IMG/VR virus record: IMGVR_UViG_3300047322_001016
Origin: an uncultured virus (IMG/VR IMGVR_UViG_3300047322_001016)
Taxonomy: Duplodnaviria > Heunggongvirae > Uroviricota > Caudoviricetes
Reading direction: 5' to 3' (one strand)
DNA length: 64,000 bases
The notes under the pieces are model-generated. The model was not told where the DNA came from and searched no databases. It saw only the letters and a program-made list of their open reading frames with translations. Positions 15,950-44,670 of the stretch are shown here, one piece after another (the stretch's first letter is position 1; each line of letters opens with the position of its first letter). A program made the translations under genes and the position numbers.

Positions 15950-16144
15950 ATGGAGTTCAAGGAAGAGGTCAGCCAGGAAGAGATGAACGCACGGTTCCCT
16001 GATCTCATGGCGGGACTTTCTTCGGACGACGCGGACTACTGCGGCTCCGGAGGATGCGATGGCATCCGGGCGATGGTGACAGGCGACGACGGAATACGTC
16101 GCTGTGCCGCCTGTGGGACTCCCCACCCGAAGTGGAATCCGTAG
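15950..16144 (+). CDS. Small Zn-ribbon-like protein
   Basis: CGSGGC and CAAC pairs. Confidence 0.45.
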   Translation: MEFKEEVSQEEMNARFPDLMAGLSSDDADYCGSGGCDGIRAMVTGDDGIRRCAACGTPHPKWNP

Positions 16145-16843
16145 ATGGCCGGAAGCATTGGTGTCACGGCGGATTCGACGGGCCGCTACACGGAGTTCAC
16201 GCGTTCGCTCGCGAACCTGTCGCGGCCCGTTAACACTCCGATCCATTTCGCGATCGGCTCGGACAGGTCGCGCGGCCGCAACCAGCTCGTCGAGACGGCG
16301 CTCGAGATCGGCTCCGAGTGGATCCTGTTTCTCGACGACGACCATTCGTTTCCGTACACGCTGTTGCAGCAGCTTCTCTCCCACGAGCAGCCGGTCGTCG
16401 CCAGCCTGTACTTGCAGCGCGGCGACCCGTTCCTGCCGATCGCGTACACGCACCGGGAAGGAGACTCGTACTGGCCTTTGGATCTTTCGCTGTGCCACGG
16501 CCACGGGCTCGTCCCGGTTGTGGGCGCCGGCGCGGGCGGGATGCTGGTCAGGTCGGAAGTGTTCTACGACATGGAGCCGCCGTGGTTCAGGTACACGACG
16601 GAACAGTCCGAGGACCTCCATTTCTGCGACCGCTGCATCGAAGCGGGGTTCCCGATCTTCGTCGACCTCGACGCCAGACTCGGCCACATCGCTGCTGTGA
16701 ACGTGTACCCGGACTTCCAGGAGGAAGGGGAAGTGTGGACGGCGGGGGTGGCGATCAGCAGTTCGGCGCGGGCCCTGTTCCCGATACAGATGCCTTTGCC
16801 TGACCCTGCTCCGGAATTCCGGAACGAAGAAACGGAGGTATGA
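16145..16843 (+). CDS. GT2-like glycosyltransferase, paralog 6
   Basis: LFLDDDH, GAGAGGMLV, SEDLHFC, RLGH. Confidence 0.8.
   Translation: MAGSIGVTADSTGRYTEFTRSLANLSRPVNTPIHFAIGSDRSRGRNQLVETALEIGSEWILFLDDDHSFPYTLLQQLLSHEQPVVASLYLQRGDPFLPIAYTHREGDSYWPLDLSLCHGHGLVPVVGAGAGGMLVRSEVFYDMEPPWFRYTTEQSEDLHFCDRCIEAGFPIFVDLDARLGHIAAVNVYPDFQEEGEVWTAGVAISSSARALFPIQMPLPDPAPEFRNEETEV
16810..16823. repeat. Palindrome TCCGGAATTCCGGA (copy 2)
   Basis: Read directly; in the 3' tail of the GT gene. Confidence 0.9.
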
Positions 16844-17018
16844 GCGTGTCTGTTTGGCGAATGACCGTCATCATCGAGATGGAAGCTGAGAACATCGACC
16901 AGGCCGAGTCGATAGGACAAGTGGTGTGGGAGAGATGCGCCCCTGTCGTCAAGGATGTCCCTGGGGCCAAGTGGATGCTTCCTGTGGGCGACTTTAAAGA
17001 GCGCGAAAGCTTCGCCGC

Positions 17019-17672
17019 ATGACGCCGCAGAGACGCGAATCCGCGGGATCGGTTGGCGTGGTCTCCAACGACACTGGCCGCTTCACGGTGTTCACCGCGT
17101 CGATGGTGGGGCTCGAGATGCCGCCCGGGTCGGGTGTGATCTGGGCGTCCGGCTCCGACATCGTGCTTGGCCGCAACAGCTGTGTCGAGAGGATGCGCGG
17201 AGAGTGGCTGTGGTTCATGGACGACGACCATGCTTTCGAACCCGGCCTGCTGATGCAGCTGCTGTCCCACAACGTCGATGTGGTGGTGCCTGTCTGTCTG
17301 ATGCGGCAGAAGCCTTTTTTCCCGGTCGAGCTGACCGCGGAAGGCCAGGCGCTCGATTTGACGACCGCGCCGCGGACCGGCCTGGTCGAACTGTATGCCG
17401 CAGGGACAGCGGGGATGTTGATCCGCCGCCGTGTGTTCGAGCGGCTCGAGCCGCCGTACTTCGCCCACGGCGACACGTCGGAGGACTTCATTTTCTGCGC
17501 CAGGCTGCGCGAGCTTGGGATCCCTATTCACTGTGATCTCGGGGCGCGGCTTGGGCATGTGACGACAACCGTGATCTGGCCGGACGTGACGGCGGGGCCG
17601 GATCCGTCGTGGTGTGTGGGGTTCCAGGTGTCGGATTCGTACATGATCCAGGTGGGGATCGAGAAGGAGTGA
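17019..17672 (+). CDS. GT2-like glycosyltransferase, paralog 7
   Basis: WFMDDDH, AAGTAGMLIRR, SEDFIFC, RLGH. Confidence 0.8.
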   Translation: MTPQRRESAGSVGVVSNDTGRFTVFTASMVGLEMPPGSGVIWASGSDIVLGRNSCVERMRGEWLWFMDDDHAFEPGLLMQLLSHNVDVVVPVCLMRQKPFFPVELTAEGQALDLTTAPRTGLVELYAAGTAGMLIRRRVFERLEPPYFAHGDTSEDFIFCARLRELGIPIHCDLGARLGHVTTTVIWPDVTAGPDPSWCVGFQVSDSYMIQVGIEKE

Positions 17673-17700: not shown

Positions 17701-18558
17701 ATGGCCTCGGTCGCTGTTCTCGGAACATCCGTCTTCAACACCACCGCCGGTGACAAGACGATCACGGCCACGCCGACCCTCGGCACTCTGATCTTGATCA
17801 TCGCCTGTGCCACCGGCGTCACGGGCGGTGCGCAGGGAGCCGTCTCCGTAAGTGACAACCAGACCGGAGTCAACGCCGCAACGTATGTGAAGGCGGGGAG
17901 CACTCAGGGAGGGTTTTCGACTACGGGCGGGCTCGACATCTGGGTCCGCAACAAGCTGATCACGTCGAACGCGTCGACGGTCTTCACCGCCGTCCAGACA
18001 AGTTCGACGGGCGGCGGCCTTGTGATCTACGCAATCACGGGAATGTCGATCGTCGGCCTGGGGGCCGTGCGCCAGGCCGGCGGCACGACAGCAGGGACAC
18101 TAGGAACGACGCCATCGGGCGCCCTCATCCCCAGACTCGGCTCGATCTTCACAGGAAGCAGCCTCGCGGCCCTGACGGGGAACGTCGTGATCGGGGCGGT
18201 CGCCAACGGGACAAGCCCGGCAACGGTGACTCCGCCGACGTCGTGGACGGAAGCGCCCACGCCGGACTTGGGCTACACCGTCCCCACCACGGGACTGGAG
18301 ACGGCGTTTATCAACTCCGGTTTTACCGGCTCGACTCCGACATGGGGTAGCACGTCTGCTACGGCCTGGGCCTCTTGCGTCGTCGAGATGGACGCGTCCG
18401 TGCCGCAGTACGACTGGGTGACCCGCAACCAGGCAGACTCGGACAGGATCATCTCGAAGGAAGCCGTGATCGGCCGTGCGAACACCTGGATGAAGGGCGC
18501 CAGGCGCGAGTGGCGGCGGGCCAAGTCAGGGATCCTCGTGCCGGAGCTGGCGTTCTGA
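17701..18558 (+). CDS. Thr/Gly-rich beta-sandwich virion decoration protein
   Basis: 285 aa, Thr/Gly/Ser-rich, basic C-terminal tail; first gene of the module array. Confidence 0.55.
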   Translation: MASVAVLGTSVFNTTAGDKTITATPTLGTLILIIACATGVTGGAQGAVSVSDNQTGVNAATYVKAGSTQGGFSTTGGLDIWVRNKLITSNASTVFTAVQTSSTGGGLVIYAITGMSIVGLGAVRQAGGTTAGTLGTTPSGALIPRLGSIFTGSSLAALTGNVVIGAVANGTSPATVTPPTSWTEAPTPDLGYTVPTTGLETAFINSGFTGSTPTWGSTSATAWASCVVEMDASVPQYDWVTRNQADSDRIISKEAVIGRANTWMKGARREWRRAKSGILVPELAF

Positions 18559-19205
18559 TGACGTTCCCGAACACACCCGTGTTGGATACCTTCAACCGGG
18601 CCAACGGCGCGATCGGATCGAACTGGACGCAGCCGGTTAGAACAGGAGATGGCACCGCCACGATCAACACGAATGTAGCGATAGCAACATCGGGGAATTA
18701 CGGCTCGATCATGTGGAATCCGACGACGTTCGCAGCCAGGCAAGAAGCGTTCTTAACTATTCCTGCTGCGTGCACGGACTTCCAATTCGCTGGCGTATAT
18801 CTTCGTTTGAGCAGCCCGGGTGCTTCCTATAACACATACACAGTTAGCGCGGATTTGAGTTTTAATTACGTGACTCGTGGTATTAGCGGTACGCCAACGC
18901 TTCTTTCCACTGTGGCTTACACAGCACTTGTACCGGGAGATGTGTTCGGCGGATCGATTGACAACGTTGGGGCGGATATTGTCATCACTATCTACAAGAA
19001 CGGTGCGGTTCTTCGCACGTACACAGATACGGGCGCTATTGCGTCCTTCCCCGCTGTAGCTGGTACAGGAAGCATCGGCGCAACTTTCTTCGGTAGCGGC
19101 ACTACAACAAGATCGATCGATGACTTCGGCGGCGGCAACACTCCACCAGTAACGTATCCCACTGACGTTCCGATCCCGATGCTCGGCGGAGCAGCGACAT
19201 GGTGA
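18558..19205 (+). CDS. Lectin-like (ConA-type) module A
   Basis: N-term FPNTPVLDTFNR, C-term DDFGGG...TDVPIPMLGGAATW; lower-GC core. Confidence 0.6.
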   Translation: MTFPNTPVLDTFNRANGAIGSNWTQPVRTGDGTATINTNVAIATSGNYGSIMWNPTTFAARQEAFLTIPAACTDFQFAGVYLRLSSPGASYNTYTVSADLSFNYVTRGISGTPTLLSTVAYTALVPGDVFGGSIDNVGADIVITIYKNGAVLRTYTDTGAIASFPAVAGTGSIGATFFGSGTTTRSIDDFGGGNTPPVTYPTDVPIPMLGGAATW

Positions 19206-19212
19206 CCTGGGC

Positions 19213-19932
19213 GTGAGTTACACGTCCGAAGTTCTCACCGATAACCCGCGGGCCTGGTACCGGATGAGAGACCCCAGCCCGAACCTGATCGCGGACTCGT
19301 CGGTGAACGGCCTCAACTGCGAAACGCAATACGGGGTCGGCGGCAACGGAACCGGCGTGTTCGCCTACAGATTCACGTCCCCGATCCGATCAGAACCCGC
19401 CGACGCGGCCATATGGTTCGAGACCAGCGCGATGAGCAAGAACCACAACACGTTGCTCAACCTCGGAGATATATTCACGCTGGAAGCGTGGGTGAAGCGC
19501 CACTCGCTCGGGTCAGGGACCGAAGGCATCATCTCCAAAGAAACCGGCGCCTACTACATGCGTCTCAACAACGGTTCGATCGAACTGCTGAACTCAAACG
19601 TCGCGTCGATCGTGACGTCGACGGCCCGGATCACCGACACCGGCACCTGGCATCACGTCGTCTGCACGAAGAATGGCTCGACCGTGAAGCAATACCTCGA
19701 CCGAGTCGACGTGACGGGCTCTGTCGTGAACTCGACCTGTGGCAACAACACGAACGCTCTCAACATCGGTTCGGACCTCACGAACAGTGACTTCATCGAC
19801 GCGTACCTCGCGGAGGTCGCCGCGTACCCGACGGCCCTGTCCCAGGCGCGCGTGTTCGCTCACTACGACGCTGCTTTTGCCGTTCTTCCCTCCGACACTC
19901 CCGCCATCATCCTAGGCTACGGAGCCTGCTGA
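19213..19932 (+). CDS. LamG-like jelly-roll protein
   Basis: YTSEVLTDNPRAWYRM, FTLEAWVK, WHHVV, EVAAYPTALS motifs; C-term SDTPAIILGYGAC. Confidence 0.8.
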   Translation: MSYTSEVLTDNPRAWYRMRDPSPNLIADSSVNGLNCETQYGVGGNGTGVFAYRFTSPIRSEPADAAIWFETSAMSKNHNTLLNLGDIFTLEAWVKRHSLGSGTEGIISKETGAYYMRLNNGSIELLNSNVASIVTSTARITDTGTWHHVVCTKNGSTVKQYLDRVDVTGSVVNSTCGNNTNALNIGSDLTNSDFIDAYLAEVAAYPTALSQARVFAHYDAAFAVLPSDTPAIILGYGAC

Positions 19933-19947
19933 CCCGGAAGGGACGCC

Positions 19948-21168
19948 ATGACTGATCTTCCCCTGACCAAGATCTCGGAGACGACGAAGACGATCACGCT
20001 CGGCTGGACTCCCGTCGCGTGTGAGGGCTATGAGTTTCTTGCCGGCGGAGTGCGCGTTTCGAACTCGTGGAATTCCGCGCAGTCCCAGGTGAGATTCTCG
20101 AAGGTCGCTTCGGGTAAGTACGCCGTGCGGGCGCTCGGCGTGAGCGCGGAAGGACTTTATCCGCCCGTCGCGCCGCCCCCGCCGCCGGGGTACCCGGCGT
20201 CGTACTTCACGGGCCCGCTCGGCGCTGCGAACTTCGTCCCGAAGAAGCCGGGAGCGTTCCTGATCGAGAACTGGGGCCAGCCAGGCAAACAATGGTCTGA
20301 CGCACAAGCAGCCATCGCTGCCCGAGAGACGTTCATCGGCCGCAAGTTCGACAGCATCCACATCCAATACTGGGCTGGAGGTTCCTATCTTGGTGTTGCC
20401 GGTATCGACGGAGCGGACGTGAACCGCCACGCGGAGCAGTGGGTTCACGACCGCGGTCAGTTCCCGGTCATCACCTGGGCGCCGCCGATGACGATCGACC
20501 AGGTGAACCAGGGTGCCGCCGACCAGGTGTTCGGGGTGGCCGCCGACCTCTGGAAGGCGATGCCGTTCACGATCATGCTGCGCCCGTTTTGGGAGTTCGA
20601 CAACGACGCGGGGTTCCCGTGGTCGTGCGGTCACACAGCCTCGATCGGCGCTCCGTTCGTGGCCGCCTGGCAGCGAATGGTCAACATCTTCAAGCAGCAT
20701 GGCGCCAACAACGTGGGGTTCTTCTGGAATCCGCTCGAGGGCGGAGACCGCGCGGGCGTCAATCAGTCCTACCCCGGAGACGCCTACGTGGACTGGGTCG
20801 GCTCCGACATCTACAACGGCGGCGACGGCAACTGGAACACTCCGCTGCACCAGGGCTGGGCATCGTTCCAGGAGTGCGCCCTCTACCCGAACCCTCCGGG
20901 TGCCTCGCAGTACAGCCTGTGGTCGCCGAAGAAACCGTTCGTGGCCGGGGAAGTCGGATGCACGCCCGACGCACGCAAGGGCGACTGGTTTCGCGCCATT
21001 CCCGCAGCTTTGAAAACCGCGCCTAACTACTGTGGCATCTCGTTCTTCGACCAAGACGTTTCTGGGCTGGAAGGCCCGACCGCGAACTGGTTCGTCGACA
21101 CTTCTACTGACTCGTATGCCGGGTTCAAGCAGATGGCCCTCGATCCGTGGCTCAACACGGGGACATAG
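19948..21168 (+). CDS. FN3-like domain + GH26-like glycoside hydrolase (beta-mannanase family)
   Basis: PVITW, MLRPFWEFD (acid/base), YPGDAYVDWVGSDIYN, KPFVAGEVG (nucleophile). Confidence 0.8.
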   Translation: MTDLPLTKISETTKTITLGWTPVACEGYEFLAGGVRVSNSWNSAQSQVRFSKVASGKYAVRALGVSAEGLYPPVAPPPPPGYPASYFTGPLGAANFVPKKPGAFLIENWGQPGKQWSDAQAAIAARETFIGRKFDSIHIQYWAGGSYLGVAGIDGADVNRHAEQWVHDRGQFPVITWAPPMTIDQVNQGAADQVFGVAADLWKAMPFTIMLRPFWEFDNDAGFPWSCGHTASIGAPFVAAWQRMVNIFKQHGANNVGFFWNPLEGGDRAGVNQSYPGDAYVDWVGSDIYNGGDGNWNTPLHQGWASFQECALYPNPPGASQYSLWSPKKPFVAGEVGCTPDARKGDWFRAIPAALKTAPNYCGISFFDQDVSGLEGPTANWFVDTSTDSYAGFKQMALDPWLNTGT

Positions 21169-21804
21169 ATGGCCGCGCCGTCCACACCGATCCTCGACGA
21201 CTTCTCGGGCACGCTCGGCGGCTGGGTACAGCAGGCGTGGGAGGTCGGCGTTGGGTTTCCCGCCGCCGTGTTCACGATCTCTGCTGGCACGGTTGTCGGT
21301 GGCGCGGGCCTTCAGAACGCGATGGCCTGGAACTCGATATTTCCGTCGGGTGACCTGGAAGCCTACGCCACGATCTCGACACTCGTTGCCGGTGGGGACG
21401 CGCAGATCCGAATCGAGAACAACCGTGGCGCGAACTACGACAGTGTCGACGGGCACGGCTACGTCCTGAGCGTCTACGAGTCCGGAAACAACTACCGGAT
21501 CATCCGTCAGTCCGACGACTCCACGGGCACCGTGATCAAGAGCGGGAACTTCACTCTTGCGAGCGGAGACAAGTTCTGCCTCCAGAGAATCGGAACAACC
21601 TGTTCCTACTGGGCCTTTACGAGCGGGGCTTGGTCGCTGGTCGATTCTGTCGTAGATGCGACCTACACGGACTCTGCGTATGTCGGGCTGTTCAGCTTCG
21701 ACAACGGAATGCACTTCGACGACTTCGGCGGCGGCACCCCACCGGACACGACGCCGCCGCAGGTGATGCTGACGATGGGGATGCTCGGGACGGGACGCTA
21801 CTGA
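21169..21804 (+). CDS. Lectin-like module B
   Basis: N-term APSTPILDDF, C-term FDDFGGG...MGMLGTGRY. Confidence 0.6.
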   Translation: MAAPSTPILDDFSGTLGGWVQQAWEVGVGFPAAVFTISAGTVVGGAGLQNAMAWNSIFPSGDLEAYATISTLVAGGDAQIRIENNRGANYDSVDGHGYVLSVYESGNNYRIIRQSDDSTGTVIKSGNFTLASGDKFCLQRIGTTCSYWAFTSGAWSLVDSVVDATYTDSAYVGLFSFDNGMHFDDFGGGTPPDTTPPQVMLTMGMLGTGRY

Positions 21805-22415
21805 TGGCCTTCCCGACGACACCTGTTCTAGACACGTTCAGCGGGCCGAATGCAGGTCCTCCACCATCAGCCAACTGGACGGGAAATGTCGGCAACGGTT
21901 TGGGGGATACACTCCAAACTTTCTTTGGGAGCTGTATAACGAACACATCTGGGTCGGCCTACTGGAATCGTTCCGTGTTTGGGCCAGATTGCGAGACGTA
22001 TGTCACTGTCTCTAGCTCGGGTGGATCGTATTACCTGTTTGTGAGAGTACAGAATCCAGGGGCCGGTACTTTGGACGGATATGTGTTGTGGTGGTTCGCT
22101 AACGTCGCAAAAATGTTCAGATTTGACAATGAGGTCTCATTCCAACTCGGGTCTGACCAAGCATTGACGCTAGCGGGTAACGATAAACTCGGCCTTGGCA
22201 TGGTTGGAAACACCTTGACCGTTTATGTCTTTAAATCAGGTTCCTGGTCTTCTGTTACGTCAGCCATAGATGCAACCTATCCTGGCGCTGGATATATAGC
22301 AATAGGACTAGGGAATTCAACAGGCTTCATGGATGATTTCGGCGGCGGGACTGTTATATCGCCATTGGCGTCCGACACTCCGAGGCCCCCTATGGGTCGT
22401 GGGGCCACATGGTGA
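21804..22415 (+). CDS. Lectin-like module C
   Basis: N-term FPTTPVLDTF, C-term DDFGGG...SDTPRPPMGRGATW; markedly lower-GC core. Confidence 0.6.
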   Translation: MAFPTTPVLDTFSGPNAGPPPSANWTGNVGNGLGDTLQTFFGSCITNTSGSAYWNRSVFGPDCETYVTVSSSGGSYYLFVRVQNPGAGTLDGYVLWWFANVAKMFRFDNEVSFQLGSDQALTLAGNDKLGLGMVGNTLTVYVFKSGSWSSVTSAIDATYPGAGYIAIGLGNSTGFMDDFGGGTVISPLASDTPRPPMGRGATW

Positions 22416-22446
22416 CGGCGACCGCTTCCCGCAGTACGCTTTCCGC

Positions 22447-22488
22447 ATGAGACTCGTGGCAATCAGTAACTGGCGGCGAAGATCCTGA
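22447..22488 (+). CDS. Putative leaderless 13-aa leader peptide MRLVAISNWRRRS
   Basis: GACCGCT-N8-TACGCT-N6-ATG; its stop overlaps (TGATG) the start of 22488. Confidence 0.4.
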   Translation: MRLVAISNWRRRS

Positions 22489-23144
22489 TGGCACTTCCTT
22501 CCACACCGTTGCTCGACGATTTCTCTAGGCCAAATGAGAGTCCTGTTAGCTGGGGACAAAGATGGCAAGCGATCGACACGTCTTTGGCTGCAGGCCCAAA
22601 CCTGACGTCCAATAGGCTGGTCGACGGATCGTCAGGAACGTGCGGACGCTACTGGTTCGGCCCTGAGCCGTCGGCTGCAGTCTTCGTCGACACGGAGGTA
22701 TGGGCTACTCTTGGCGCAATCGGGTCAGGGCCGGCAAGTAACAGCATTCGTTTGTGGGCGCGGCTCGGCACAGTCGGGGGCACAAACACCTACACCGGCT
22801 ACTTCCTTGATCAGAATCCCAACTCTCATACATTGGGACTTGGGATGGCCATAGGAAATGGTTCGACGTCAGGTTTGGGTAGCCTCACTCAGAACCTCGT
22901 CGCCGGAGACACGATCGTGCTCAGGGTCGTCGGATACACGCTCACGGCTTACGTCATCTCTTCTGGTGTGATCAAGACGGTGTTTTCGGCGGCTGCCACT
23001 CTTTTGGTTCCCCAAGGAAGCATCGGTATTGGACTTTCGATTACTGGGCTAGCAGGTGGCTGGAAGGTGACTAGTTTCGGCGGCGGTACGATCGACTCAC
23101 TCACTCCCGGAACTCATCCTGTCGGGGGCTTTGGGGCAACCTAG
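22488..23144 (+). CDS. Lectin-like module D
   Basis: N-term LPSTPLLDDF, C-term SFGGG...PVGGFGAT; lower GC. Confidence 0.6.
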   Translation: MALPSTPLLDDFSRPNESPVSWGQRWQAIDTSLAAGPNLTSNRLVDGSSGTCGRYWFGPEPSAAVFVDTEVWATLGAIGSGPASNSIRLWARLGTVGGTNTYTGYFLDQNPNSHTLGLGMAIGNGSTSGLGSLTQNLVAGDTIVLRVVGYTLTAYVISSGVIKTVFSAAATLLVPQGSIGIGLSITGLAGGWKVTSFGGGTIDSLTPGTHPVGGFGAT

Positions 23145-23181
23145 GTAGTGGAGTCCGCTTGGCCGTCTAGCATTGACGGCG

Positions 23182-23397
23182 ATGACACGGCTCGTATCTG
23201 TCCGCACTGCTTCCCTCTCGCACCGAGTTCCGTATCGTCGGCTGGGCATGCTGCGTCAGCGGGTGGCGCGAATTCCGGGACATGTGATTCGTCTTCCGCG
23301 GCGCGTCTCGAGAAGGACGTTCGTTCGAGTCGCGATCCGCAGATCTACCAGTAGCGGGAGCTCAGGCGAACCTCACCTAGCTAGCCGGGCCGTCTAA
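23182..23397 (+). CDS. Small Arg-rich ORF abutting the giant gene
   Basis: Follows the promoter motif at 23153; stop directly adjacent to the GTG at 23398. Confidence 0.3.
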   Translation: MTRLVSVRTASLSHRVPYRRLGMLRQRVARIPGHVIRLPRRVSRRTFVRVAIRRSTSSGSSGEPHLASRAV

Positions 23398-26300
23398 GTG
23401 GCCCGGTTCCTCCGCACCGAAACGAACGCGAGCGGCGGCCACTCAAGGCTACGACCGCCGACCGTCGTCCTGGTGCCGCCACTGGCGCCGCCCCTGAGCG
23501 TCAACCTCGCAATCGACGGACGGTCGAGGTCGAGACGAAACCAGATCCAGCGTGGCGCGAAGTCGTTCAGGATCCAGCCGCCACCCGTTGTTGGCGCGGG
23601 CATCGCCTACGGCGGCCCCGGCGTCAGGCTTGCCGAGCCGTGGTCCGCGAATAACCTGAACCGCAGGAAGGCGACATCGGAACTGCGTCCGCCGGCTGTC
23701 GTTCGCCCCGTTGACCAATTCTTCGGTCCTCGGATCCGCTTTGTTGGATCTGCAATTAGGTCCACGGCGTGGTTCACGTCTCGAGCGAAGCCGTTCCTCC
23801 GTTCTCCTGTTCTCGTCTTCGCACCCGCGTTCTACGGCCCCGGCGTTGTCCGGCCCAGGGTCACGAACGTCTCGATCGTCCGTCGCGTCGCTCACTCGCG
23901 GCTTCCGCAAGTCATTCCGCTCACGCCAGCGGTTTTCGTCGCCAGACCGGTCAAGGTCTATCTCACCGACATCGAAGACCGCTCTGCCCACAATGCCCGT
24001 CAGCGCAGGGCTGAATCGAAGCTGTTCCCGCCCGCTGTTGTCGGCGCCGGGATTGCGTTCTCTGGCCCCAGGAAGAAGATCTCTCGTACCCCACCGCGGA
24101 AGACACGCTCGTTCCTGCGCCCGCCAACGCGCGTATCCCCGGTACTAGCACCCCCGATCACGATCAATCTGGTCGGTCGCAACCGTCTGATCCGGGCACG
24201 CAAGACCGACTCTGTTCTTTTCCCGCCGATCATTCCGACGACGACGTTCGTTGCGGTCCCGATTGCAACCACGCTTGTCGGGCGCAATCGCCTTCTCCGC
24301 GCACGCAAGACCGATTCTCTGCTGCGGCCGCCCGAGTCGGCGTTCCAGTGTCTCGTCACCCGTTATGTCAGCCGCCAGTTCCTGGCTCCGCCCGCGTATC
24401 TGCCGGGAGGAAACGGGTTCGCCGGCGGCACCGCGGTCTTTTTCTCGGATGCGTTCAACCGCGTAACAGCGAACGGCTGGGGAACCGCCGACGTCGGCGG
24501 AGCCTGGACGGTAACGACAGGGACAGCATCCTTCGACTCGACTGACGGCTCGGTCGCCAAGATCGTCCCGGGTTCGGTTGCGACACAGCGGCTGCGGCTC
24601 GCGGCGGTCAGCGCCAGCGACGTCGACGTCTACGGCGAGATCACGTTCTCCGCCACGGCGGCGACCTCGAACGGTGAGTTCGCCTGCGAGGCCCGGTACA
24701 CGGATACCAACAACACTCTCCGCTTCCGGGTCATCCAGTCGACCTCCGGGAACATCGTCGTCGCGGTCGACGAGGTTGTTGGTGGCGTGGCGACCGAGAT
24801 CGCGGTGGCGACCCCGGCGTTCACTTCGTACATCGCCGGCGAGACGATCTCGTTCAGGGCCAGGGCGGTTGGCCATGCCGTCTCGATGGTGGCGTGGCGC
24901 AAGGGCACATCCGAACCTGCGGCACAGACCACGGCGAACACGGCGATCGTCATCGCGGGGGCCGTCGCCGCCCGCTACATCGCGGCGGGGAACTTCCCGA
25001 ATCTGACGCTCGACAATCTCGTCGGGGTCGCTCCTGGTGGTTGCGCGGAGGGTGGCGGGCTCGAGCTTCCTCCGCCTGTCCGTGACCGCCGGCCTGCCGT
25101 TCGTTCGTTCCTGCGCCCGCCGACCGCTGTCGCGTCCTCGTTTGTCGCATCACCGATCGCGGTCAACCTCGTTGGCCGGAACCGGCTTGTCCGGGCGCGT
25201 AAGACCGACTCAACGCTGTTCCCGCCGATCCTTCCGCCTGACGCAGGCAGGATCCGGGGCTCGCTCACCAAGCCGCGCGACACGGCGCCGCGGACAAGGT
25301 CGTTCCTCCTTCCCCCGGTCCTCGCTGTCTCGACGGTCTTCGCACGGCCGATTGACGTTGCTCTTGCTCGGATCAAGCCTGGGCGCACCGCCTACTTCCT
25401 GCGCGGCGCTGTTGTTATCACCCCGGCTGCGCTCGCGAGCCCGATCAAGGTCGCACTTGCGCCGCAGAAGCGCGGGGCGCCGAAGTCGAAGCTTCCGCAG
25501 GTTGTCTATGCCGCCCAGGTTTACCCGGGCATTGAGGGCTTCCTCGCCAAGCGCAAGCACGTCAACCCGCGGACAAGGTCGTTCCTGCGGCCGCCCGAGT
25601 CGGCGTTCCAGTGTCTCGTCACCCGTTATGTCAGCCGCCAGTTCCTTAACCCACCGGCGTACATGCCGGGCGGCAACGGGCTTCCGAGTGGCGACCCGAC
25701 AACGTATGCGCTCGACAACTTCAGCCGCGTCACTACAAACGGCTGGGGAACCGCCGATGTAGGTGGAACCTGGAACAACACCGGGTCGCGTTGGAGCACG
25801 GACGGAACGCGTGCTCTCTTCACGGTTTCGGACGGATCCGCCGTCGTTGAGGGTTCGAGCCTTACCGGCGTAGGGACGCTTGGGAACGATTTCGAGGCCG
25901 CGTTCCGGTGGACGTTCAACGAAGCGTGGGCCGGAAATCTCAATCGCATCAACATGGGTTGGGCTGGCTTCTTCGTTCGCCTTGAGAACACCACGAACGA
26001 CCGGGTAGCAGCGGGGATCTTCGATGCGGTCGGCAACGCTATCACCGGAGGGTCGCTTGTTTGGCCTGATGGCTCTCCCGATTACGGGCACCTTTGGTGG
26101 CTGAAGTTCCGCCAGTCTGCCGGACGTCTCTATGTGAAGGCATGGAAAGACGGTTTGTCGGAGCCAGCCAATTGGCTGCTCGAAGTTGCTGCTCCGTACA
26201 CGAATCTCAACAACGGTGCCGCCTTTAGCTTCGAGAAGTTCTCGACCGTCCCGAACACGTTCATCATCGATTCGTTCTCGTTGGTGTCGCTCGACGGTTG

Positions 26301-29300
26301 CGCGGCTGGCGGCGGACTCGAGCTTCCTCCGCCTGTTCGCGACCGTCGTCCCGCCGTTCATTCGTTCCTGCGTCCGCCGACAGCCACTCAGGTTCAGGTC
26401 GTCTACTACGGGCCGAAGACCCCGCTTGTTCGGGTCAGGCCGCAGGCAACACACAGCGTTTTGCGGCGCCCTGCCGTTGTCGGCCCTGTTCTCGCCCCGC
26501 CGATCGAAGAGCGCATTGCCGTTCAGCTCACCCGCGCCGAGCTCGAGCGGAAGACGATCTCGCGGCTGTCCAAGCCGGTCGTTGTTGACGCATTCCGAAT
26601 CCCGGTTGTCAAGGTCTCACTGGTTCGGATCCGTCCGGTCAGGACGAACCCGGAGCTGCGGCCGCCGACCGTCATCGACCTTCGTCCGCAGACGTACTTC
26701 GTCGACGTTCACCTTGCCTACTCGAAGCGCGGCGCCCCGAAGTCGGTTCTGCGTCCGGCGATCATCCCGCTGCTCGCCCCGCCGGTCGACGCGGAAGTCG
26801 CCGTCCAGCTCACGCGGGCTCGGCTCGAGCGGCGCCTGGCGCTGTCCCATCTTTCGCCCCCGGCGGTCATCGACAACTCGCCGCAGGTCTTCTATCTCGC
26901 AACGTGGCTGACGTACTCGCTGCGCGGGAAGCCGAAGTCGTTCCTTGGCAAGCCAACCGATCTCGTTGACCAGCAGGATCTCGGGTTCGTTCACGCACAT
27001 CTGGCGTACTCGCGCCGCGGCCGTCCCGTCTTCAGGCTGCAGCCGCCCGCGGTTGTCGGCCCGGTTCTCGCCCGCGCGATCTTCGTCCATCTTGCTCCGT
27101 CTAGCCATGGCATTCCCAAGTCGATCCTGCGCGAGCCGACCGTCGTCGCCCCGGTGTTGGCCAGCCCGATCAGGGTCACGCTCGACCGGATCAAGCCAGC
27201 CCACACGATCGCGCGGCTGTTCCCGCCCGCCGTCGTCACCGGACATACCCCCGAAGACGTTTCCGTCGACGTCACTCTTGCTCCGCAGCGCCGCGGCCAG
27301 CCGAAGTCGGCCCTGCGCGCCCCGACGGTTGTCGCTCCCGTCCTGGCAAAGCCGATTGGTGTTGCGCTCGTCAGGATCAAGCCGCAGCCGACAACCACGT
27401 ATCTGTTCCCGCCGGTCGTTGTTTACCTGGCCGTCGAGCTCAGCGGCCCCGAGACGAGCCTGGCGCCTTCCCGCCGCGGCGTCCCGAAGAGCGTTCTGTT
27501 CCCGCCGATCCACCCGGAGAGCTTCCCGCCCGTCCACGAAGTAATCGCCGTTCAGCTAACCGAGTCGTCGCTGATCCGGCATCAGCCGAAGTCGCGTCTG
27601 TTCCCGCCGACCGTCGTGTTCACGGCCGTCGAGCTGAGCGGCCCGGACGTCACTCTCTCCCCGCAGAAGCGCGGCGTCCCGAAGTCGAAGCTCGCCGCCC
27701 CGACCGTCGTCGCGCCGGTTCTCGCGCGTGCGATCCAGGTTTCGCTTGTTCGGATCAAGCCGGTCAAGACGCATCCGGCGCTGTCCCCGCCGGTCATCCC
27801 GCCGCTGCCGCGTCCCGTCGAAAGCGAGCTTTCCGTCCAGCTCACCCGGGCTGCGCTGGAACGCCACACGATCTCCAGGCTCGGCGCCCCGACGGTCGTC
27901 GACACGTTCCGCATCCCGGTCGTTTCGACGCGTCTCGTCAGGATCCGCCCCGCTCTTACACACTCGGCTCTGCGTCCTCCGACGGTCATCGACAACAGCC
28001 CGCAGGTCTTCTACCTGACAGTCGGGCTTGCGCCATCGAAGCGTGGCGTTCCGAAGTCGCATCTGCTCCCCGCGATCATCCCGCCGCTCGCCCCGCCCGT
28101 CGACGCCGAGATCGCGGTTCAGCTCACCGAAGCAACGCTGATCCGCCGCGCTTCGATGTGGCGCCTGTCGCCGCCGACGGTGGTTTACACCGCCGTCGAG
28201 CTGAGCGGCCCCGAAACAACGGTCGCTCCCAGCTCACGCGGCAAGGCCAAGTACTTCCTCCGCCCGATGGGCTCGCCGGCTGTCGTCTACGCGCCGCTCG
28301 AGGTTCGTCTTGCTCCCTCAACGAAGCTGCCGCGGGCACCCCACGCCAAGCTGTTCCCGCCGACCGTCATCGACAACCGGCCGCAGACCTACTACCTCAC
28401 GGTCGCTCTCGCGTACTCGCTCCGCGGTAAGCCGAAGCCGCATCTCTTCCCGCCCCCGACGATCCAGGCCACCCCGAAGGCAGAGACCGTCGTTGCCGTC
28501 ACCCTGGCCTACTCGCTCCGCGGGAAGCCGAAGCCCCGGCTCAACCCGCCGACCGTCGTCACCGCGGCCACCCCGTACCTCCGGGCGATCGACACAACCC
28601 TGGTTCGGATCCGCCCCGTTCGCACCCTGGCGATCCTCGGGAAGCCAACCGACACCGTCGGACTCGAAGACCAGGGCCGCGTCGCAACCCATCTCGCCTA
28701 CTCGCGCCGTGGCCGTCCGCTGTCGATTCTCCGCCAGCCGACCGTCGTCAGCCCAGTCCTGGCGCGTCCCGTCCTGGAAGGTTTGTCCGTTCAGCTCACC
28801 CGCGTCGAGCGGGAACGCAAGACAATGTCGCGGCTGTCCCCGCCGACGGCCGTCGACACGTTCCGGATCCCGGTTGTCGAGGTCAGGCTCGCGAGGATCC
28901 GGCCTGTCCCGACGCACCCGGAGCTTCGCCCGCCAGCCGTAATCGACCTGACACCACAGGTTTACTACCTGACGCTGTCGCTCGCGTACTCGCTCCGCGG
29001 CACACCGAAGTCCGAGCTGAAGCCTCCGGCCGACACAGTCGGGATCGAAGACCAGGGCCGCGTAAACGTCCACCTGGCCTATTCGCTGCGCGGCACTCCC
29101 AAGTCGCGCCTGGCAGCGCCGACCGTCGTCGCCCCGGTTCTGGCACGGCCGATCGACGTTGCCCTCGTTCGGATCACGCCGCCGCCGGTCGTTTCCCGGT
29201 TGGCGCCGCCGGTTCCGCCGGAGACATTCCCGCCCGTCCGTGAAGAAATCACGGTTCAGCTTGCGCTCGCCGAGATCCGGCAGCGCAAGACCACATCGCG

Positions 29301-31158
29301 CCTGAAGCCGCCCGTCGTCGTCTTCACCGCCGTCGAGCTCAGCGGCCCCAAGGCCGCGCTTGCCCCGAGCGCACGCGGGAAGCCGAAGTCGTTCCTGCGG
29401 CCGATGGGCAGCCCGGCCGTTGTTTACGCGCCGCTCGAGACTAGGCTGGCGCCGTCGACGCGGCTGCCGCGCGCACCGCACTCGGAGCTGAAGCCGCCGA
29501 CGGTTATCGACAACCGGCCGCAGACGTTCTACCTGGCGGTCTCGCTTGCCTACTCGCTGAGAGGGAAGGCCAAGCCGCGGCTGTTCCCGCCGCCCGCGAT
29601 CCAGGCGACAGCCAAGGCCGAAACGGTTCTGTCGGTCACGTTGGCGTACAGCCTGCGCGGCACGCCGAAGTCGTTCCTGACGCCGCCGACGGTCGTCACC
29701 GCCGCGACGCCGTACCTGCGCCCGGTCGACGTCACGTTGGCCCCGCAGGCACGCGGCCACGCAAGGCCGTTCCTTGGCGACTACATCGTCCCGGCGTTCT
29801 CGGGTCGGCCGATCGCCGTCACGTTGGCTCCGCAGACGCGCGGCAAGGCAACGTCGTTCCTGCCGAAGACGATCTACGAAGCACGGTCGTACGCCCCTGT
29901 CAGGGTCACGTTGGCGCCGCAGAAGCGTGGCGTTCCGAAGTCGCTGCTGGCGCAGGTTGTCTACGAAGCACGGGTCTACGCCCCGGTCCGCGTTGAACTT
30001 GCTCCGTCGCGTCGCGGCACACCCAAGTCCGTTCTCCGCCAGGTCGAATACGGCGCTGTCTCGTTCAGGCCCGTCGCGGTCACCTTGGCGCCGTCGTTCC
30101 GTGGTCAGCCGAAGCCGATCCTGTCCGCGCCGGCCGTCGTCTTCGCGTTCACAGCAACCCCGACCGCGATCCAGCTCGCCTACTCGCGTCGCGGACGGCC
30201 CGTCTCGCGGCTGTCCGCGCCGGTCGCCGTCGCGCCGTTCTTCGCACGTGCAGTCGACGTCGCCCTGGCTCCGCAGCGCCGCGGAACACCCAAGTCGACC
30301 TTGGCGCAGGTTGTCTACGAGGCCCGGTCGTACGCCCCGGTCAGGGTTGTTCTCGCCCCCGCCGCGCGTCTTGACCGGACGCCGCATTCGCGCCTTGCCG
30401 CCCCGACGGCCGTCAGCCGCTTCGTCGCCGCCCCGGTCAGCGTCACCCTGGCGGCGCAGCGTCGCGGCAAGACAACGTCGTTCCTGACATCCGTCGCCTT
30501 CGAGCGCCGCTCGTTCGCCGCAGTCCAGACGCACCTTGCCCCGCCGACGCGGGTCGGCCGGGCCGCCCACAGCAAGCTCGGGGAGCCGACGGTTGTCTTC
30601 CCGTTCCTCGCGAGGCCGGTCAGCGTCGAACTGGTGCGGATCCGGCCGCCGCGGACGATCGCGCGTCTCACGCCGATCCCGACGGTCGCGTTCTTCGCGA
30701 GGCCGGTCAGCGTCGAGCTGGCCCGGACACCGCAGAAGAGCGTCGTCTCGGCTCTGCGGCCGCCGACCGTCATCGACCTCACACCCCAGGTTTTCTACCT
30801 GAACGTCACGCTGGCGCAGATCCGGCCGCCGAAGACAACCGCGCGAATCGTCCCGCCGGCGGTAGTCAACCCGTACCGGGCCCCGGTGTCGTCGTTCATC
30901 CAGGTTCACCTGGCCTACAGCCGCCGCGGACGCCCGATCCACCATCTCGGCTTCGTCCCGGGCCTGTCACACGGCGGAATCATTTGCGGCGTCATCCTCG
31001 ACCTGACCAGCGTCTGTCAGGACATCACGGCCGACGTCGACACGATAATCGACGGCGGAGTTCTCGAAACGCATGTGGTGAGCGAAACGACGACCGCTTC
31101 AACGGTCATCATGGGTGAGACCTTGGCCGAAACACGCGTAGAACAGGACATCGAATGA
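23398..31158 (+). CDS. Giant (2586 aa) Pro/Arg/Val-rich repeat protein with two embedded lectin-like domains
   Basis: Dozens of ~27-32 aa degenerate repeats (e.g. PVLARPIxVxLAxxxRGxPKSxLxPPTVV); two globular inserts; acidic C-terminus. Confidence 0.8.
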   Translation: MARFLRTETNASGGHSRLRPPTVVLVPPLAPPLSVNLAIDGRSRSRRNQIQRGAKSFRIQPPPVVGAGIAYGGPGVRLAEPWSANNLNRRKATSELRPPAVVRPVDQFFGPRIRFVGSAIRSTAWFTSRAKPFLRSPVLVFAPAFYGPGVVRPRVTNVSIVRRVAHSRLPQVIPLTPAVFVARPVKVYLTDIEDRSAHNARQRRAESKLFPPAVVGAGIAFSGPRKKISRTPPRKTRSFLRPPTRVSPVLAPPITINLVGRNRLIRARKTDSVLFPPIIPTTTFVAVPIATTLVGRNRLLRARKTDSLLRPPESAFQCLVTRYVSRQFLAPPAYLPGGNGFAGGTAVFFSDAFNRVTANGWGTADVGGAWTVTTGTASFDSTDGSVAKIVPGSVATQRLRLAAVSASDVDVYGEITFSATAATSNGEFACEARYTDTNNTLRFRVIQSTSGNIVVAVDEVVGGVATEIAVATPAFTSYIAGETISFRARAVGHAVSMVAWRKGTSEPAAQTTANTAIVIAGAVAARYIAAGNFPNLTLDNLVGVAPGGCAEGGGLELPPPVRDRRPAVRSFLRPPTAVASSFVASPIAVNLVGRNRLVRARKTDSTLFPPILPPDAGRIRGSLTKPRDTAPRTRSFLLPPVLAVSTVFARPIDVALARIKPGRTAYFLRGAVVITPAALASPIKVALAPQKRGAPKSKLPQVVYAAQVYPGIEGFLAKRKHVNPRTRSFLRPPESAFQCLVTRYVSRQFLNPPAYMPGGNGLPSGDPTTYALDNFSRVTTNGWGTADVGGTWNNTGSRWSTDGTRALFTVSDGSAVVEGSSLTGVGTLGNDFEAAFRWTFNEAWAGNLNRINMGWAGFFVRLENTTNDRVAAGIFDAVGNAITGGSLVWPDGSPDYGHLWWLKFRQSAGRLYVKAWKDGLSEPANWLLEVAAPYTNLNNGAAFSFEKFSTVPNTFIIDSFSLVSLDGCAAGGGLELPPPVRDRRPAVHSFLRPPTATQVQVVYYGPKTPLVRVRPQATHSVLRRPAVVGPVLAPPIEERIAVQLTRAELERKTISRLSKPVVVDAFRIPVVKVSLVRIRPVRTNPELRPPTVIDLRPQTYFVDVHLAYSKRGAPKSVLRPAIIPLLAPPVDAEVAVQLTRARLERRLALSHLSPPAVIDNSPQVFYLATWLTYSLRGKPKSFLGKPTDLVDQQDLGFVHAHLAYSRRGRPVFRLQPPAVVGPVLARAIFVHLAPSSHGIPKSILREPTVVAPVLASPIRVTLDRIKPAHTIARLFPPAVVTGHTPEDVSVDVTLAPQRRGQPKSALRAPTVVAPVLAKPIGVALVRIKPQPTTTYLFPPVVVYLAVELSGPETSLAPSRRGVPKSVLFPPIHPESFPPVHEVIAVQLTESSLIRHQPKSRLFPPTVVFTAVELSGPDVTLSPQKRGVPKSKLAAPTVVAPVLARAIQVSLVRIKPVKTHPALSPPVIPPLPRPVESELSVQLTRAALERHTISRLGAPTVVDTFRIPVVSTRLVRIRPALTHSALRPPTVIDNSPQVFYLTVGLAPSKRGVPKSHLLPAIIPPLAPPVDAEIAVQLTEATLIRRASMWRLSPPTVVYTAVELSGPETTVAPSSRGKAKYFLRPMGSPAVVYAPLEVRLAPSTKLPRAPHAKLFPPTVIDNRPQTYYLTVALAYSLRGKPKPHLFPPPTIQATPKAETVVAVTLAYSLRGKPKPRLNPPTVVTAATPYLRAIDTTLVRIRPVRTLAILGKPTDTVGLEDQGRVATHLAYSRRGRPLSILRQPTVVSPVLARPVLEGLSVQLTRVERERKTMSRLSPPTAVDTFRIPVVEVRLARIRPVPTHPELRPPAVIDLTPQVYYLTLSLAYSLRGTPKSELKPPADTVGIEDQGRVNVHLAYSLRGTPKSRLAAPTVVAPVLARPIDVALVRITPPPVVSRLAPPVPPETFPPVREEITVQLALAEIRQRKTTSRLKPPVVVFTAVELSGPKAALAPSARGKPKSFLRPMGSPAVVYAPLETRLAPSTRLPRAPHSELKPPTVIDNRPQTFYLAVSLAYSLRGKAKPRLFPPPAIQATAKAETVLSVTLAYSLRGTPKSFLTPPTVVTAATPYLRPVDVTLAPQARGHARPFLGDYIVPAFSGRPIAVTLAPQTRGKATSFLPKTIYEARSYAPVRVTLAPQKRGVPKSLLAQVVYEARVYAPVRVELAPSRRGTPKSVLRQVEYGAVSFRPVAVTLAPSFRGQPKPILSAPAVVFAFTATPTAIQLAYSRRGRPVSRLSAPVAVAPFFARAVDVALAPQRRGTPKSTLAQVVYEARSYAPVRVVLAPAARLDRTPHSRLAAPTAVSRFVAAPVSVTLAAQRRGKTTSFLTSVAFERRSFAAVQTHLAPPTRVGRAAHSKLGEPTVVFPFLARPVSVELVRIRPPRTIARLTPIPTVAFFARPVSVELARTPQKSVVSALRPPTVIDLTPQVFYLNVTLAQIRPPKTTARIVPPAVVNPYRAPVSSFIQVHLAYSRRGRPIHHLGFVPGLSHGGIICGVILDLTSVCQDITADVDTIIDGGVLETHVVSETTTASTVIMGETLAETRVEQDIE
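24322..24383 (+). repeat. 62-bp exact direct repeat, copy 1 (left flank of insert 1)
   Basis: Identical to 25585..25646. Confidence 0.9.
25585..25646 (+). repeat. 62-bp exact direct repeat, copy 2 (left flank of insert 2)
   Basis: Identical to 24322..24383. Confidence 0.9.
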
Positions 31159-31171
31159 CGGGAGGCCCGAA

Positions 31172-32389
31172 ATAAACGGCGGCACCTTTCTTTACGGAAA
31201 TCCGTTCGTTGTCCGAGACACATTCGGGATCCTCACCGTTCCCGGAGACCCGACGTCGTTCGTCGCCACAAACCCGACGACGGTCACGTACACCGTCAGG
31301 GATCCCGCCGGGGTTCTGACCACCTACGTTTTCGGCGTCGACGTGGAAGTCACGAACCCGGCGGTCGGCGTTTTCGAGCTTCGCCAGGGGCCGCTGACGC
31401 TCGCGGGCGGCTGGACATACGCGATCGTCGGCACCGGCGCTGTCGAAGCGACATTGGAGGGCGACTGGACGATCCTTCCGTCGTCGGTTTTCTCGCCGGT
31501 TGTTTCCGAGTTCTCGCCGACACCGTGTGCGCCTTGGTGCGACTCCCAGGACGCATGGATCGCGTGCGGTTCGCCGATGACTTTGATCGGCGAAGGAACG
31601 GACGCGACGGAATGCCCGGTTGATTTGACGCCGTACACGCAGGCCGCTTCCTGGCTTCTGTTCGAGCTTTCCGGCCGTCTCTTTTCGGGCCGCTGCGAAC
31701 GCACCGTCAGGCCGTGCAGCGATCTTCCCTGCGGATTCCAGGTTTTGCCGGGCGGATACGTGGTTTGGCCTGGAGACTTCGGTGTTGGCGGCGGCTGGGG
31801 GTGGGGCTGGAGCGGGTCGGGTTGGAACTGGCCGAACTTCGGCGGCTGCGGCTGCGAGCCGCTCGACCGGATCAACCTGGCCGGGTATCCGGTACGCGAA
31901 ATCGTCGAAGTCAAAATCGACGGTGTCGTGGTGCCGGAAACCAACAACTGGCGTCTCGACAGGCGCCGCTTCCTGACCCGGACAGCCGACGCGGACGGGA
32001 ACGCGCAGCGGTGGCCCGCGTGTCAGCGGATGGACATGGACGACACGCAGCCCGGCACGTTCTCGGTCAAGTACGCCTACGGGCAGGACCCGCCGCTGAT
32101 GGGGGCGATGGCCGCCGCGAAAGTCGCGTGCGAGCTCTACAGCGCTTTGAACGGCGGCGAGTGCCAGTTGCCCGACGGAACGGTTCAGATCACCCGGCAG
32201 GGAGTGACGATCAACAAGCTCGCGACGCTCGGCTGGTTCCGTTCCAGCACGGCCGGTTGGAAGACGGGCATCGCTGTCGTCGACTCGTTCCTGAACGGCG
32301 CCAACCCGTATGGGATGACTCGCCGTCCGATGATGATGGCTCCCGGTAACCGCCGCGGTCGCTTCGCGCAGTCGGTGGGCAACGGCTAA
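31172..32389 (+). CDS. Head-to-tail adaptor with N-terminal Ig-like domain (probable ATA start)
   Basis: AASWLLFELSGRLFSGRCERTVRPC, WPACQ, LACE-like and ITRQGV motifs of actinophage adaptors; frame is open upstream of GTG 31343 to GGGAGG-N6-ATA. Confidence 0.75.
   Translation: MNGGTFLYGNPFVVRDTFGILTVPGDPTSFVATNPTTVTYTVRDPAGVLTTYVFGVDVEVTNPAVGVFELRQGPLTLAGGWTYAIVGTGAVEATLEGDWTILPSSVFSPVVSEFSPTPCAPWCDSQDAWIACGSPMTLIGEGTDATECPVDLTPYTQAASWLLFELSGRLFSGRCERTVRPCSDLPCGFQVLPGGYVVWPGDFGVGGGWGWGWSGSGWNWPNFGGCGCEPLDRINLAGYPVREIVEVKIDGVVVPETNNWRLDRRRFLTRTADADGNAQRWPACQRMDMDDTQPGTFSVKYAYGQDPPLMGAMAAAKVACELYSALNGGECQLPDGTVQITRQGVTINKLATLGWFRSSTAGWKTGIAVVDSFLNGANPYGMTRRPMMMAPGNRRGRFAQSVGNG

Positions 32390-41933: not shown

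Positions 41934-44670
<2,737 letters not shown>

Follow-up and report, generated by a model that had tools for sequence, protein, structure and literature searches.

What is the role of a phage protein of 2586 amino acids that is built of some 65 copies of a short repeat, is preceded by a run of small genes of glycan-binding type and is encoded directly before the head-tail adaptor? This question is raised by a 64-kb stretch of DNA (hereafter the window; 59-69% GC) from an uncultured virus of the Caudoviricetes (IMG/VR record IMGVR_UViG_3300047322_001016), in which the giant gene and the small genes occupy positions 17701 to 31158. Judged from the similarity of its genes, the window holds the structural gene set of a siphovirus related to actinobacteriophages. 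We find that the giant represents a new protein family, and that predicted ConA-like modules occur either as separate genes upstream of it or embedded in members of its family. Our preferred reading, to which we give somewhat less than an even chance, is that the locus encodes a modular adhesion apparatus, in which a fibre anchored at the neck of an actinophage-like siphovirus carries glycan-binding modules.

Results

A new family of giant repeat proteins

The giant open reading frame (ORF; 23398..31158, plus strand) runs for 2586 codons without a stop. Its GC content at codon positions 1, 2 and 3 is 0.67, 0.54 and 0.81, and the third-position value stays between 0.69 and 0.87 across all 600-nucleotide (nt) blocks, resembling the neighbouring phage genes. 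A search with residues 1001-2200 of the protein against 1.84 billion representative proteins returned 130 related clusters at E≤1e-3, 103 at E≤1e-10 and 77 at E≤1e-30. Because of this coding periodicity and these relatives, the ORF is a real gene. A first-pass annotation, made from the DNA letters alone, had described a 2586-residue protein of short repeats and had named the lack of coding periodicity or homologues, or a match of the repeat to a well-known family, as grounds for abandoning its interpretation; the description is borne out, periodicity and homologues are both present, and neither Pfam nor PHROG has a family that matches the giant.

A hidden Markov model (HMM) of the repeat unit, iterated on the family and covering 2198 copies, spans 31 positions with the consensus LRPPTVVGAAVVFRGPRVTLARSRRGRPKSR; in the conservation table of its 30 match columns, the conserved residues include L1 (100%), P4 (99%), L20 (92%) and S30 (89%). 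The model makes 55 domain matches in the giant, 43 of them at an independent E-value below 0.01, and about eight gaps of ~35 amino acids hold a variant unit, which together gives the estimate of ~65 units. The protein is strongly basic (isoelectric point, pI, 11.2) and rich in Pro (11.6%), Val (11.5%) and Arg (9.5%). At the DNA level the unit copies are 60-80% identical and recur at spacings of 93, 186, 378, 567 and 1137 nt, which marks a higher-order block of ~12 units; 28161-29597 contains a duplication of 300 nt at 76% identity with an offset of 1137 nt (12 units). The gene ends in an acidic, Cys-bearing, non-repeat C-terminal domain (30940..31155, plus strand; 72 amino acids, pI 4.2).

This build recurs among the relatives. 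In the 111 members longer than 400 amino acids the median pI is 11.6, so that a basic body is family-wide, and in 88 of them the final 60 residues have a pI below 5.5, hence an acidic end. The termini are conserved, with an N-terminal MARFLRT...GGHSRL and several C-terminal types (...GGDEKREGC, ...GSDRKAT). Length has a median of 928 and a maximum of 2586 amino acids (76 members with typical N-termini, fragments included), and 0-51 units are detected per protein. A Pfam scan of 28 of the 130 relatives left 26 without a family, with P0119 matching Laminin_G_3 and P0121 matching FG-GAP_2; ten relatives that were checked are all metagenomic and named just "hypothetical protein". Other collections were searched as well: two family members gave zero tblastn matches in 50,697 phage records, 1200 amino acids of repeats reached a best score of 0.81 in the Atlas, below a usable level, and a scan of genome contigs produced 98 pattern matches, of which none was confirmed. 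The scan of metagenome contigs yielded two loci, and those of viral contigs three distinct giant-bearing contigs in all. Profiles of the tape measure protein (TMP) match 34091-39661 only and are absent from the giant, which lies upstream of the adaptor, and the Gly-X-Y Collagen profile (PF01391) matches 42130-44670 and the proteins of the related locus L005, not the giant. A literature search for a comparable architecture found nothing relevant, in agreement with the first-pass statement that no phage family of this kind has been described.

Predicted ConA-like modules occur free or embedded

As the first-pass annotation had seen, genes of glycan-binding type precede the giant, all on the plus strand. 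One encodes a LamG (ConA-like lectin/glucanase) protein (19213..19932, ending ...LGYGAC), which matches Laminin_G_3 (PF13385) at 75.8 bits against a cutoff of 27.6 (5.1e-21); the gathering score is also reached by P0119, by L035:6772-7479 and by the adaptor extension of L022, and no such match is made by the giant, its inserts or the four other free modules. The latter are paralogues of ~200 amino acids (E 1e-3 to 4e-19), namely module 1 (18558..19205, start set by homology at MTFPNTP, ending ...PMLGGAATW), module 2 (21169..21804, ending ...GMLGTGRY), module 3 (21804..22415, BLASTP 4e-19 to module 2, ending ...PPMGRGATW) and module 4 (22488..23144, BLASTP 9e-7 and 2e-9 to modules 2 and 3, ending ...HPVGGFGAT). 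We call them ConA-like after the Atlas model of module 2 (predicted template modelling score 0.80), which aligns with the PF06439/PF21708 ConA-like clusters at template modelling (TM) scores of 0.68-0.72 over ~170 residues; this match compares predicted models on both sides and implies no function. In Pfam, PF06439 included, the ORFs 18375-19205, 21169-21804 and 21630-22415 match nothing even at E≤10, and 22488-23144 gives only a chance MASE2 row (E 0.14). The remaining gene of the run encodes a 406-amino-acid protein with a weak GH26-like region (19948..21168; Glyco_hydro_26, 2.2e-4, 21.1 bits against a cutoff of 20.2). It is a paralogue of 4602-5816, with which it has a common N-terminus (M.DLPL..ISET..TITLGW), and both match L036:70-1440, which begins with a signal-peptide-like hydrophobic stretch.

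The free proteins upstream of the giant carry a common C-terminal G-x-G-A-S/T-W-like tag at all four loci with upstream sequence: the window, L034 (...LGRGAVR, ...SRGTSWV, ...GGFGAC), L035 (...GGKGASW, ...GGRGASW, ...HGRGAA, ...AGRGANR) and L036 (...SRMTSW, ...VRASFW). The tagged proteins belong to several families, of which LamG (window, L034, L035:6772-7479) and the free-module type are recognisable; the remaining tagged proteins of L035 and L036 belong to neither and have no Pfam model. In a scan of ORFs of at least 120 amino acids in all frames of the non-duplicate loci, a regular expression for the tag matched 18 of 1404 ORFs, and 13 of the 18 are plus-strand genes just before the giant at these four loci, an apparently large enrichment for a pattern that was defined post hoc. 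The terminal tags that the first-pass annotation had pointed to are thus real, and are shared by several families.

Modules of the same types are also found inside the family proteins. In profile searches, the free-module family was embedded in 11 of them (twice each in P0130 and P0010, and in P0106, P0048, P0078, P0089, P0053, P0081, P0005, P0009 and P0019) and the LamG type twice in P0119. Counting all embedded modules, there are 19 across 15 of the 131 family proteins, and 17 of these lie in the N-terminal half (median relative position 0.17). In distant members a linker pair, RFPLQGW before and LGPRPP after the module, frames both the free-module and the LamG types, indicating that different modules share one socket. 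By sequence, predicted ConA-like modules occur either free upstream or embedded in conserved sockets, which is the alternative of insertion or free, tagged passengers that had been proposed.

The giant itself holds two inserted domains on the plus strand, at 24382..25062 (residues 329-555; flanks 24322-24417 and 25039-25127) and 25645..26319 (residues 750-974; flanks 25585-25680 and 26296-26384). They are paralogues (40% protein identity, E 9e-48), and each takes the place of the middle of one unit, with a Cys in the flank on either side. Between the two copies the flanks are 90% and 87% identical in DNA (repeat families D18-D20), and the cores are 40% identical in protein. The same domain is present in P0001, P0049 and P0050 of the giant family and in proteins downstream of the adaptor in three related phages that lack the giant (L019, L010, L012); it matches the C-terminal part of phrog_24476 (1e-10), and the L010 protein also matches a PHROG annotated as a tail protein. 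The first-pass annotation had called these inserts lectin-like. Their being two inserts, paralogous to each other, is confirmed; a weak similarity between the insert and free-module profiles (hhalign probability 78.7%, E 1.7e-5, 63 columns) hints at a lectin-like nature, and a profile search of the PDB with the insert gave no match.

A scaffold unit ends a distant fibre-region protein

One unit of the scaffold recurs outside the giant family. The 382-amino-acid protein of the tail-fibre region (44671..45819, plus strand; phrog_2448, 8e-42) ends in VAPFIARPINIALAPALATRARRKTKSFLPQVVL, and its last ~36 amino acids (45709-45816) comprise one complete scaffold unit and the opening strand of a second. 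Among ORFs outside the family, across the window and 31 loci, it gives the best match to the unit HMM (E 0.22). The tail aligns with residues 2277-2306 of the giant at a Smith-Waterman score of 65, compared with 35.9±4.5 for shuffled tails (0 of 500 reach 65) and at most 40 for other parts of the same protein. In a comparison of 121 sequences of this type (the query and the best 120 of 283 matches), 118 end ~35 residues earlier, without the unit tail, which is confined to the window protein, an identical database copy and P0135 (78% identical); the tail is thus found in two distinct sequences, from this phage and its closest relative. That of P0135 is the clearer unit (E 2.6e-5 against the unit HMM) and is followed by LAPPTVIN. 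Ser30 of the unit is kept in both tails, and both stop right after the first strand of the next unit. The repeat that had been noticed at the end of this distant gene therefore holds up, and the lectin-like character ascribed to the gene is not supported.

The giant is linked to the head-tail adaptor

The adaptor gene (31175..32389, plus strand; phrog_783, 1.9e-44) has relatives annotated as head-to-tail adaptor in 431 actinophage records. Giant genes are known from six contigs (the window, L001=L004=L034, L003=L035, L036, L032 and L033), and in each of them the adaptor gene follows the giant at a distance that ranges from an overlap of 1 nt to a gap of 185 nt. None of 27 other adaptor loci, four of which have less than 4 kb of upstream sequence, has a homologue of the giant family; the sole match there (L010:16070-17494, 4.3e-6) arises through the shared insert domain. 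The giant-bearing contigs are mutually closest by adaptor similarity. In the window the capsid gene lies 21 kb upstream of the giant, whose immediate neighbour is the adaptor gene, and in L034, L035 and L036 the 10 kb upstream contain no capsid gene. In L032 the giant homologue is split over two ORFs (3-2930 and 2981-3688) by a short break, either a real interruption or an assembly error.

In the other giant contigs the adaptor begins with an ATG abutting the giant's stop. In the window its first canonical start is a GTG at 31343, with no ATG, GTG or TTG for the adaptor ahead of it in 31139-31345. The N-terminal domain (...TNPTTVTYTV..., homologous to TNPTTVTFT of L001) is open in frame from about 31142, and an ATA codon near 31175 is preceded, at a distance of 6 nt, by GGGAGG, which resembles a Shine-Dalgarno site; translation may begin at a non-canonical codon. 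A programmed frameshift from the giant into the adaptor was considered and judged unlikely, as the site would be confined to 5 codons and has no slippery sequence.

Related phages show other proteins at this position. In L022/L023, 6884-10864 encodes a 1326-amino-acid protein with the adaptor domain (phrog_783, 1.9e-74) at its end, preceded by 1075 residues made of Laminin_G_3 (9.8e-13) and ~20 acidic repeats of ~22 amino acids (A-D-x-A-x-G-x-D-x-V-T). This repeat type also builds a 1585-amino-acid protein of L026 (1163-5920; 8e-21), encoded upstream of the capsid gene. The slot before the adaptor in L005, the nearest relative that lacks a giant, holds two collagen-like proteins (Pfam Collagen, 7e-55) and a GT2 gene. 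The L022/L023 fusion and the L005 fibres suggest that related phages repeatedly put lectin-bearing or fibrous repeat proteins at or on the adaptor. The adaptor of L020 (6859-9138) has a C-terminal extension of ~500 amino acids with repeated segments of ~90 amino acids (WGDG...H.Y motifs), which makes it a further example of a decorated adaptor among these phages.

Glycosyltransferases and gene context

Upstream of the modules, 12906..17672 (plus strand) holds five paralogous GT2-type glycosyltransferase genes (12906-14081, 14179-15144, 15305-15949, 16145-16843 and 17019-17672; Pfam Glycos_transf_2 / Glyco_tranf_2_3, phrog_1574). Arrays of GT2 paralogues precede the giant at the four loci with upstream sequence, with five genes in the window, two in L034, five in L035 and four in L036. 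The window thus has phage-encoded glycosyltransferases among its structural genes, as phage systems for virion glycosylation do; such enzymes are also encoded by relatives without a giant, L005 and Sixama. A GT1-type glycosyltransferase is encoded elsewhere in the window (51977-53305, minus strand). Between the GT2 array and module 1 lies a gene for a 285-amino-acid protein (17701..18558, plus strand) that has no Pfam or PHROG family and is conserved in giant-bearing loci (L036, 2e-55; L034, 3e-21).

The wider gene set includes the major capsid protein (417-2177; phrog_777, 1e-70), which in tblastn is most similar (36-38% identity) to the "major capsid hexamer protein" annotated in phages of Arthrobacter and Gordonia; relatives of the capsid and adaptor proteins occur in phages of Mycobacterium, Gordonia and Microbacterium. 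A phrog_779 protein (2223-3152) and a match to the major tail protein family (3263-3940) follow the capsid gene, and beyond the adaptor lie the tape measure (34091-39661; TMP profiles of Pfam and PHROG, 1856 amino acids), Dit (39668-40543) and a collagen-like fibre (42130-44670; Pfam Collagen profile). The cultured relative Mycobacterium phage Marley1013 likewise has its major tail gene ahead of the adaptor. Immediately behind the major-tail-like gene of the window, 3957-4469 encodes a Thr/Ala-rich protein of 170 amino acids without a family, which is very strongly conserved between the window and L034 (L034:1893-2405, 6e-98); conceivably it decorates the virion or is itself glycosylated. Other genes of the window encode a protein with a PTP-like phytase / dual-specificity phosphatase domain among the structural genes (7540-8439; PF14566, 1.4e-23), a lysozyme-like SLT_3 protein (5822-6448, minus strand) and an NlpC/P60 + PG_binding_1 protein that is likely the endolysin (53359-54066, plus strand).

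Discussion

We tentatively favour a modular adhesion apparatus as the product of this locus. Its central idea, a scaffold combined with modules, is well supported by sequence comparison; its place on the virion surface, its anchoring at the neck, its polarity, and its docking of partners and binding of glycans are what we infer. The giant would be an elongated, strongly basic, beta-rich stalk of ~65 units, most likely anchored by its acidic C-terminal domain at the head-tail junction, beside or on the adaptor. Such stalks would form long neck fibres (whiskers) and display ConA-like modules chiefly on their distal N-terminal part, the modules being either built into sockets inside single units or supplied as separate, tagged small proteins. 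The free modules and the fibre-region protein may be recruited via the tag or the donated unit; the complete unit tail of the latter suggests that units or tags join partners to the scaffold. Many weak sugar contacts, together with the positive charge, could provide a reversible first attachment to polysaccharides of the host envelope, and the modules would be exchangeable through recombination.

Several observations weigh against this adhesion apparatus. Of the checks proposed in the first-pass annotation, the repeat HMM was built, on the family, and structure prediction gave little: AlphaFold2 reached a predicted local distance difference test score (pLDDT) of 33.8 for ten units (47-row alignment of in-register segments), which is unusable, and its all-strand model, with no helix and ~3 short strands per unit, is unreliable at that score. 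Insert 2 with its flanks (5 rows) reached a pLDDT of 39.5, and Foldseek with this poor model found nothing at E≤1e-3, with TM<0.3; the weak rows are mostly galectin-like or ConA-like sandwiches, and we do not count them as support. No cultured relative of the giant was found among the 50,697 phage records. Neighbouring genes alone are no proof that the giant binds the adaptor. A search for adaptor proteins of 610-2000 amino acids revealed no giant-adaptor fusion, which is weak evidence, the adaptor domain occurs in none of the 131 giant-family proteins, and the L022 extension has no significant similarity to the giant (E>1), making the two analogous, not homologous. Gene order does not tell head, neck and tail parts apart in this lineage, where the major tail gene, too, precedes the adaptor. 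The regular expression for the tag was composed after the tags had been seen, and, as the giant-bearing loci are mutually closest, the co-occurrence of tag, glycosyltransferases and giant may reflect shared descent.

Two further readings concern what the units do, and to each we give only a small chance. One is a cellulosome-like docking system on the virion, in which the units would be receptor sites for C-terminal strands of the lectin-like and fibre-region proteins. The attaching strand would be the G-x-G-A-S/T-W tag or a donated unit ending LxPPxVV, strand complementation might join the partners, and embedded and free modules would be two states of one plug-in design. The other, similarly doubtful, takes the units as acceptor sites for the co-encoded transferases, making the giant a heavily glycosylated, mucin-like shield or fibre, the unit tail of 44671-45819 a glycosylation tag and the lectin-like modules potential binders of the phage's own glycans; it is compatible with the fibre model. 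The GT2 arrays upstream of the giant at four of four loci speak for it, as does Ser30, the sole highly conserved hydroxyl residue of the unit, and for related mycobacteriophages, glycosylation of capsid and tail-tube proteins by phage-encoded transferases is reported (PMC11600133, PMC12363180). However, the transferases of L005 and Sixama exist without a giant and would have other virion proteins as targets, Ser and Thr are not abundant in the units (T 8.0%, S 6.6%), there is no known acceptor motif for these enzymes, and the co-occurrence is confounded by common descent.

Other readings place the giant elsewhere in the virion. The first-pass annotation had proposed that the repeat tiles or cements the capsid, with modules plugged in or docked, and this we now regard as unlikely. 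The gene does follow the capsid genes and precede the adaptor, a polycation of pI 11.2 could bind a capsid surface, and the very low AlphaFold2 confidence of the free chain would fit folding only against a partner surface. Yet the wide range of lengths and unit numbers in the family is hard to match to a fixed lattice, the linkage in six of six contigs is to the adaptor, with the capsid gene far off and nothing tying the repeat to the capsid protein, and related phages place fibres or lectin extensions in this slot or on the adaptor. Very unlikely, in our view, is a giant lying along the tail tube with one unit per ring. The tail is lengthened by ~1.5 Å per tape measure residue and a ring measures ~4 nm, from which ~70 rings are computed for the 1856-amino-acid tape measure, close to the ~65 units, and the major tail gene likewise lies upstream of the adaptor; but where both genes are complete, at three loci, the length of the giant does not scale with that of the tape measure (2586/1856 in the window, 1338/848 in L034, 1097/1758 amino acids in L036), and the idea of a tail ruler is rejected on these pairs. 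We give just as slim a chance to an internal, DNA-binding or ejected head protein, for which the high pI and the recurring RRGxPKS loops, as candidate contacts to packaged DNA, could be invoked. Four copies of these loops read RRGRP, which we take to resemble the AT-hook core; an AT-hook reading was dropped, with just those four copies, no profile support and a GC-rich genome. An internal role is made unlikely by modules of an outward type: the embedded modules of the insert type, tentatively ConA-like, recur in related phages in proteins whose genes follow the adaptor, the insert flanks bear Cys, and the free lectin-like partners and the unit tail on the fibre-region protein point outward.

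How does the proposed adhesion apparatus compare with known systems? Cellulosome scaffoldins of bacterial extracellular complexes carry cohesin repeats that receive dockerin-tagged enzymes. The likeness is one of concept, a long repeat scaffold and separate carbohydrate-active modules sharing a short C-terminal tag; unlike the cellulosome, neither the giant nor the tagged proteins contain a cohesin or dockerin family of Pfam, docking is putative, and the setting would be a virion. Choline-binding repeats and the CROP repeats of clostridial toxins are beta-hairpin solenoids that bind wall polymers or sugars, and resemble the giant in having tens of short beta-rich repeats (20-31 amino acids), an elongated body and many weak ligand sites, but there is no sequence match, the giant's units are Pro/Val/Arg-rich with a pI of 11, and its fold prediction is of low confidence. 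The collagen-like proteins of L005 are likewise long repeat fibres encoded between capsid and adaptor next to a GT2 gene, yet have Gly-X-Y repeats in place of the 31-amino-acid unit, and no tagged lectin set was seen there.

The nearest known counterpart appears to be the lactococcal neck passage structure (NPS), described in the available text of one report as neck collar fibres that end in exchangeable carbohydrate-binding modules and bind host cells weakly (PMC6669499). Both systems would have fibres at the head-tail junction, the neck site here being a prediction, with varying module classes and weak multivalent binding. NPS proteins, according to the same source, have 500-900 amino acids and begin with a BppU-like sandwich, to which a trimeric coiled coil is joined (PMC6669499), whereas the stalk proposed here consists of a new basic, beta-rich 31-amino-acid repeat, with modules in internal sockets or as separate tagged proteins. 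The giant shows no trace of the NPS architecture in PHROG or Pfam matches, and no helix in the AlphaFold2 segment, with no dedicated BppU search made. Tandem phage glycosyltransferase genes among actinophage structural genes are also known from the mycobacteriophages Che8, Corndog and Myrna, where capsid and tail-tube subunits are modified; the available text mentions no giant, lectin set or tags (PMC11600133, PMC12363180). We conclude that the giant constitutes a new protein family and a new organisation of a known kind of function; for the socket-and-tag organisation the literature search found no counterpart.

Virion decoration with spare carbohydrate-binding modules is known, in the form of individual proteins that are not very large. 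In the present locus an entire block of genes surrounds one giant, with transferases, six lectin-like or glycan-active genes and a scaffold of 2586 amino acids. If the docking is true, one scaffold would be re-armed with interchangeable modules while the scaffold gene stays unchanged, and would amount to a natural display scaffold with tens of sites. As the 130 related clusters are without annotation, the function of one member would name them all. If the tags and units are docking devices, they would represent a general route by which phages may switch adhesion by swapping small genes.

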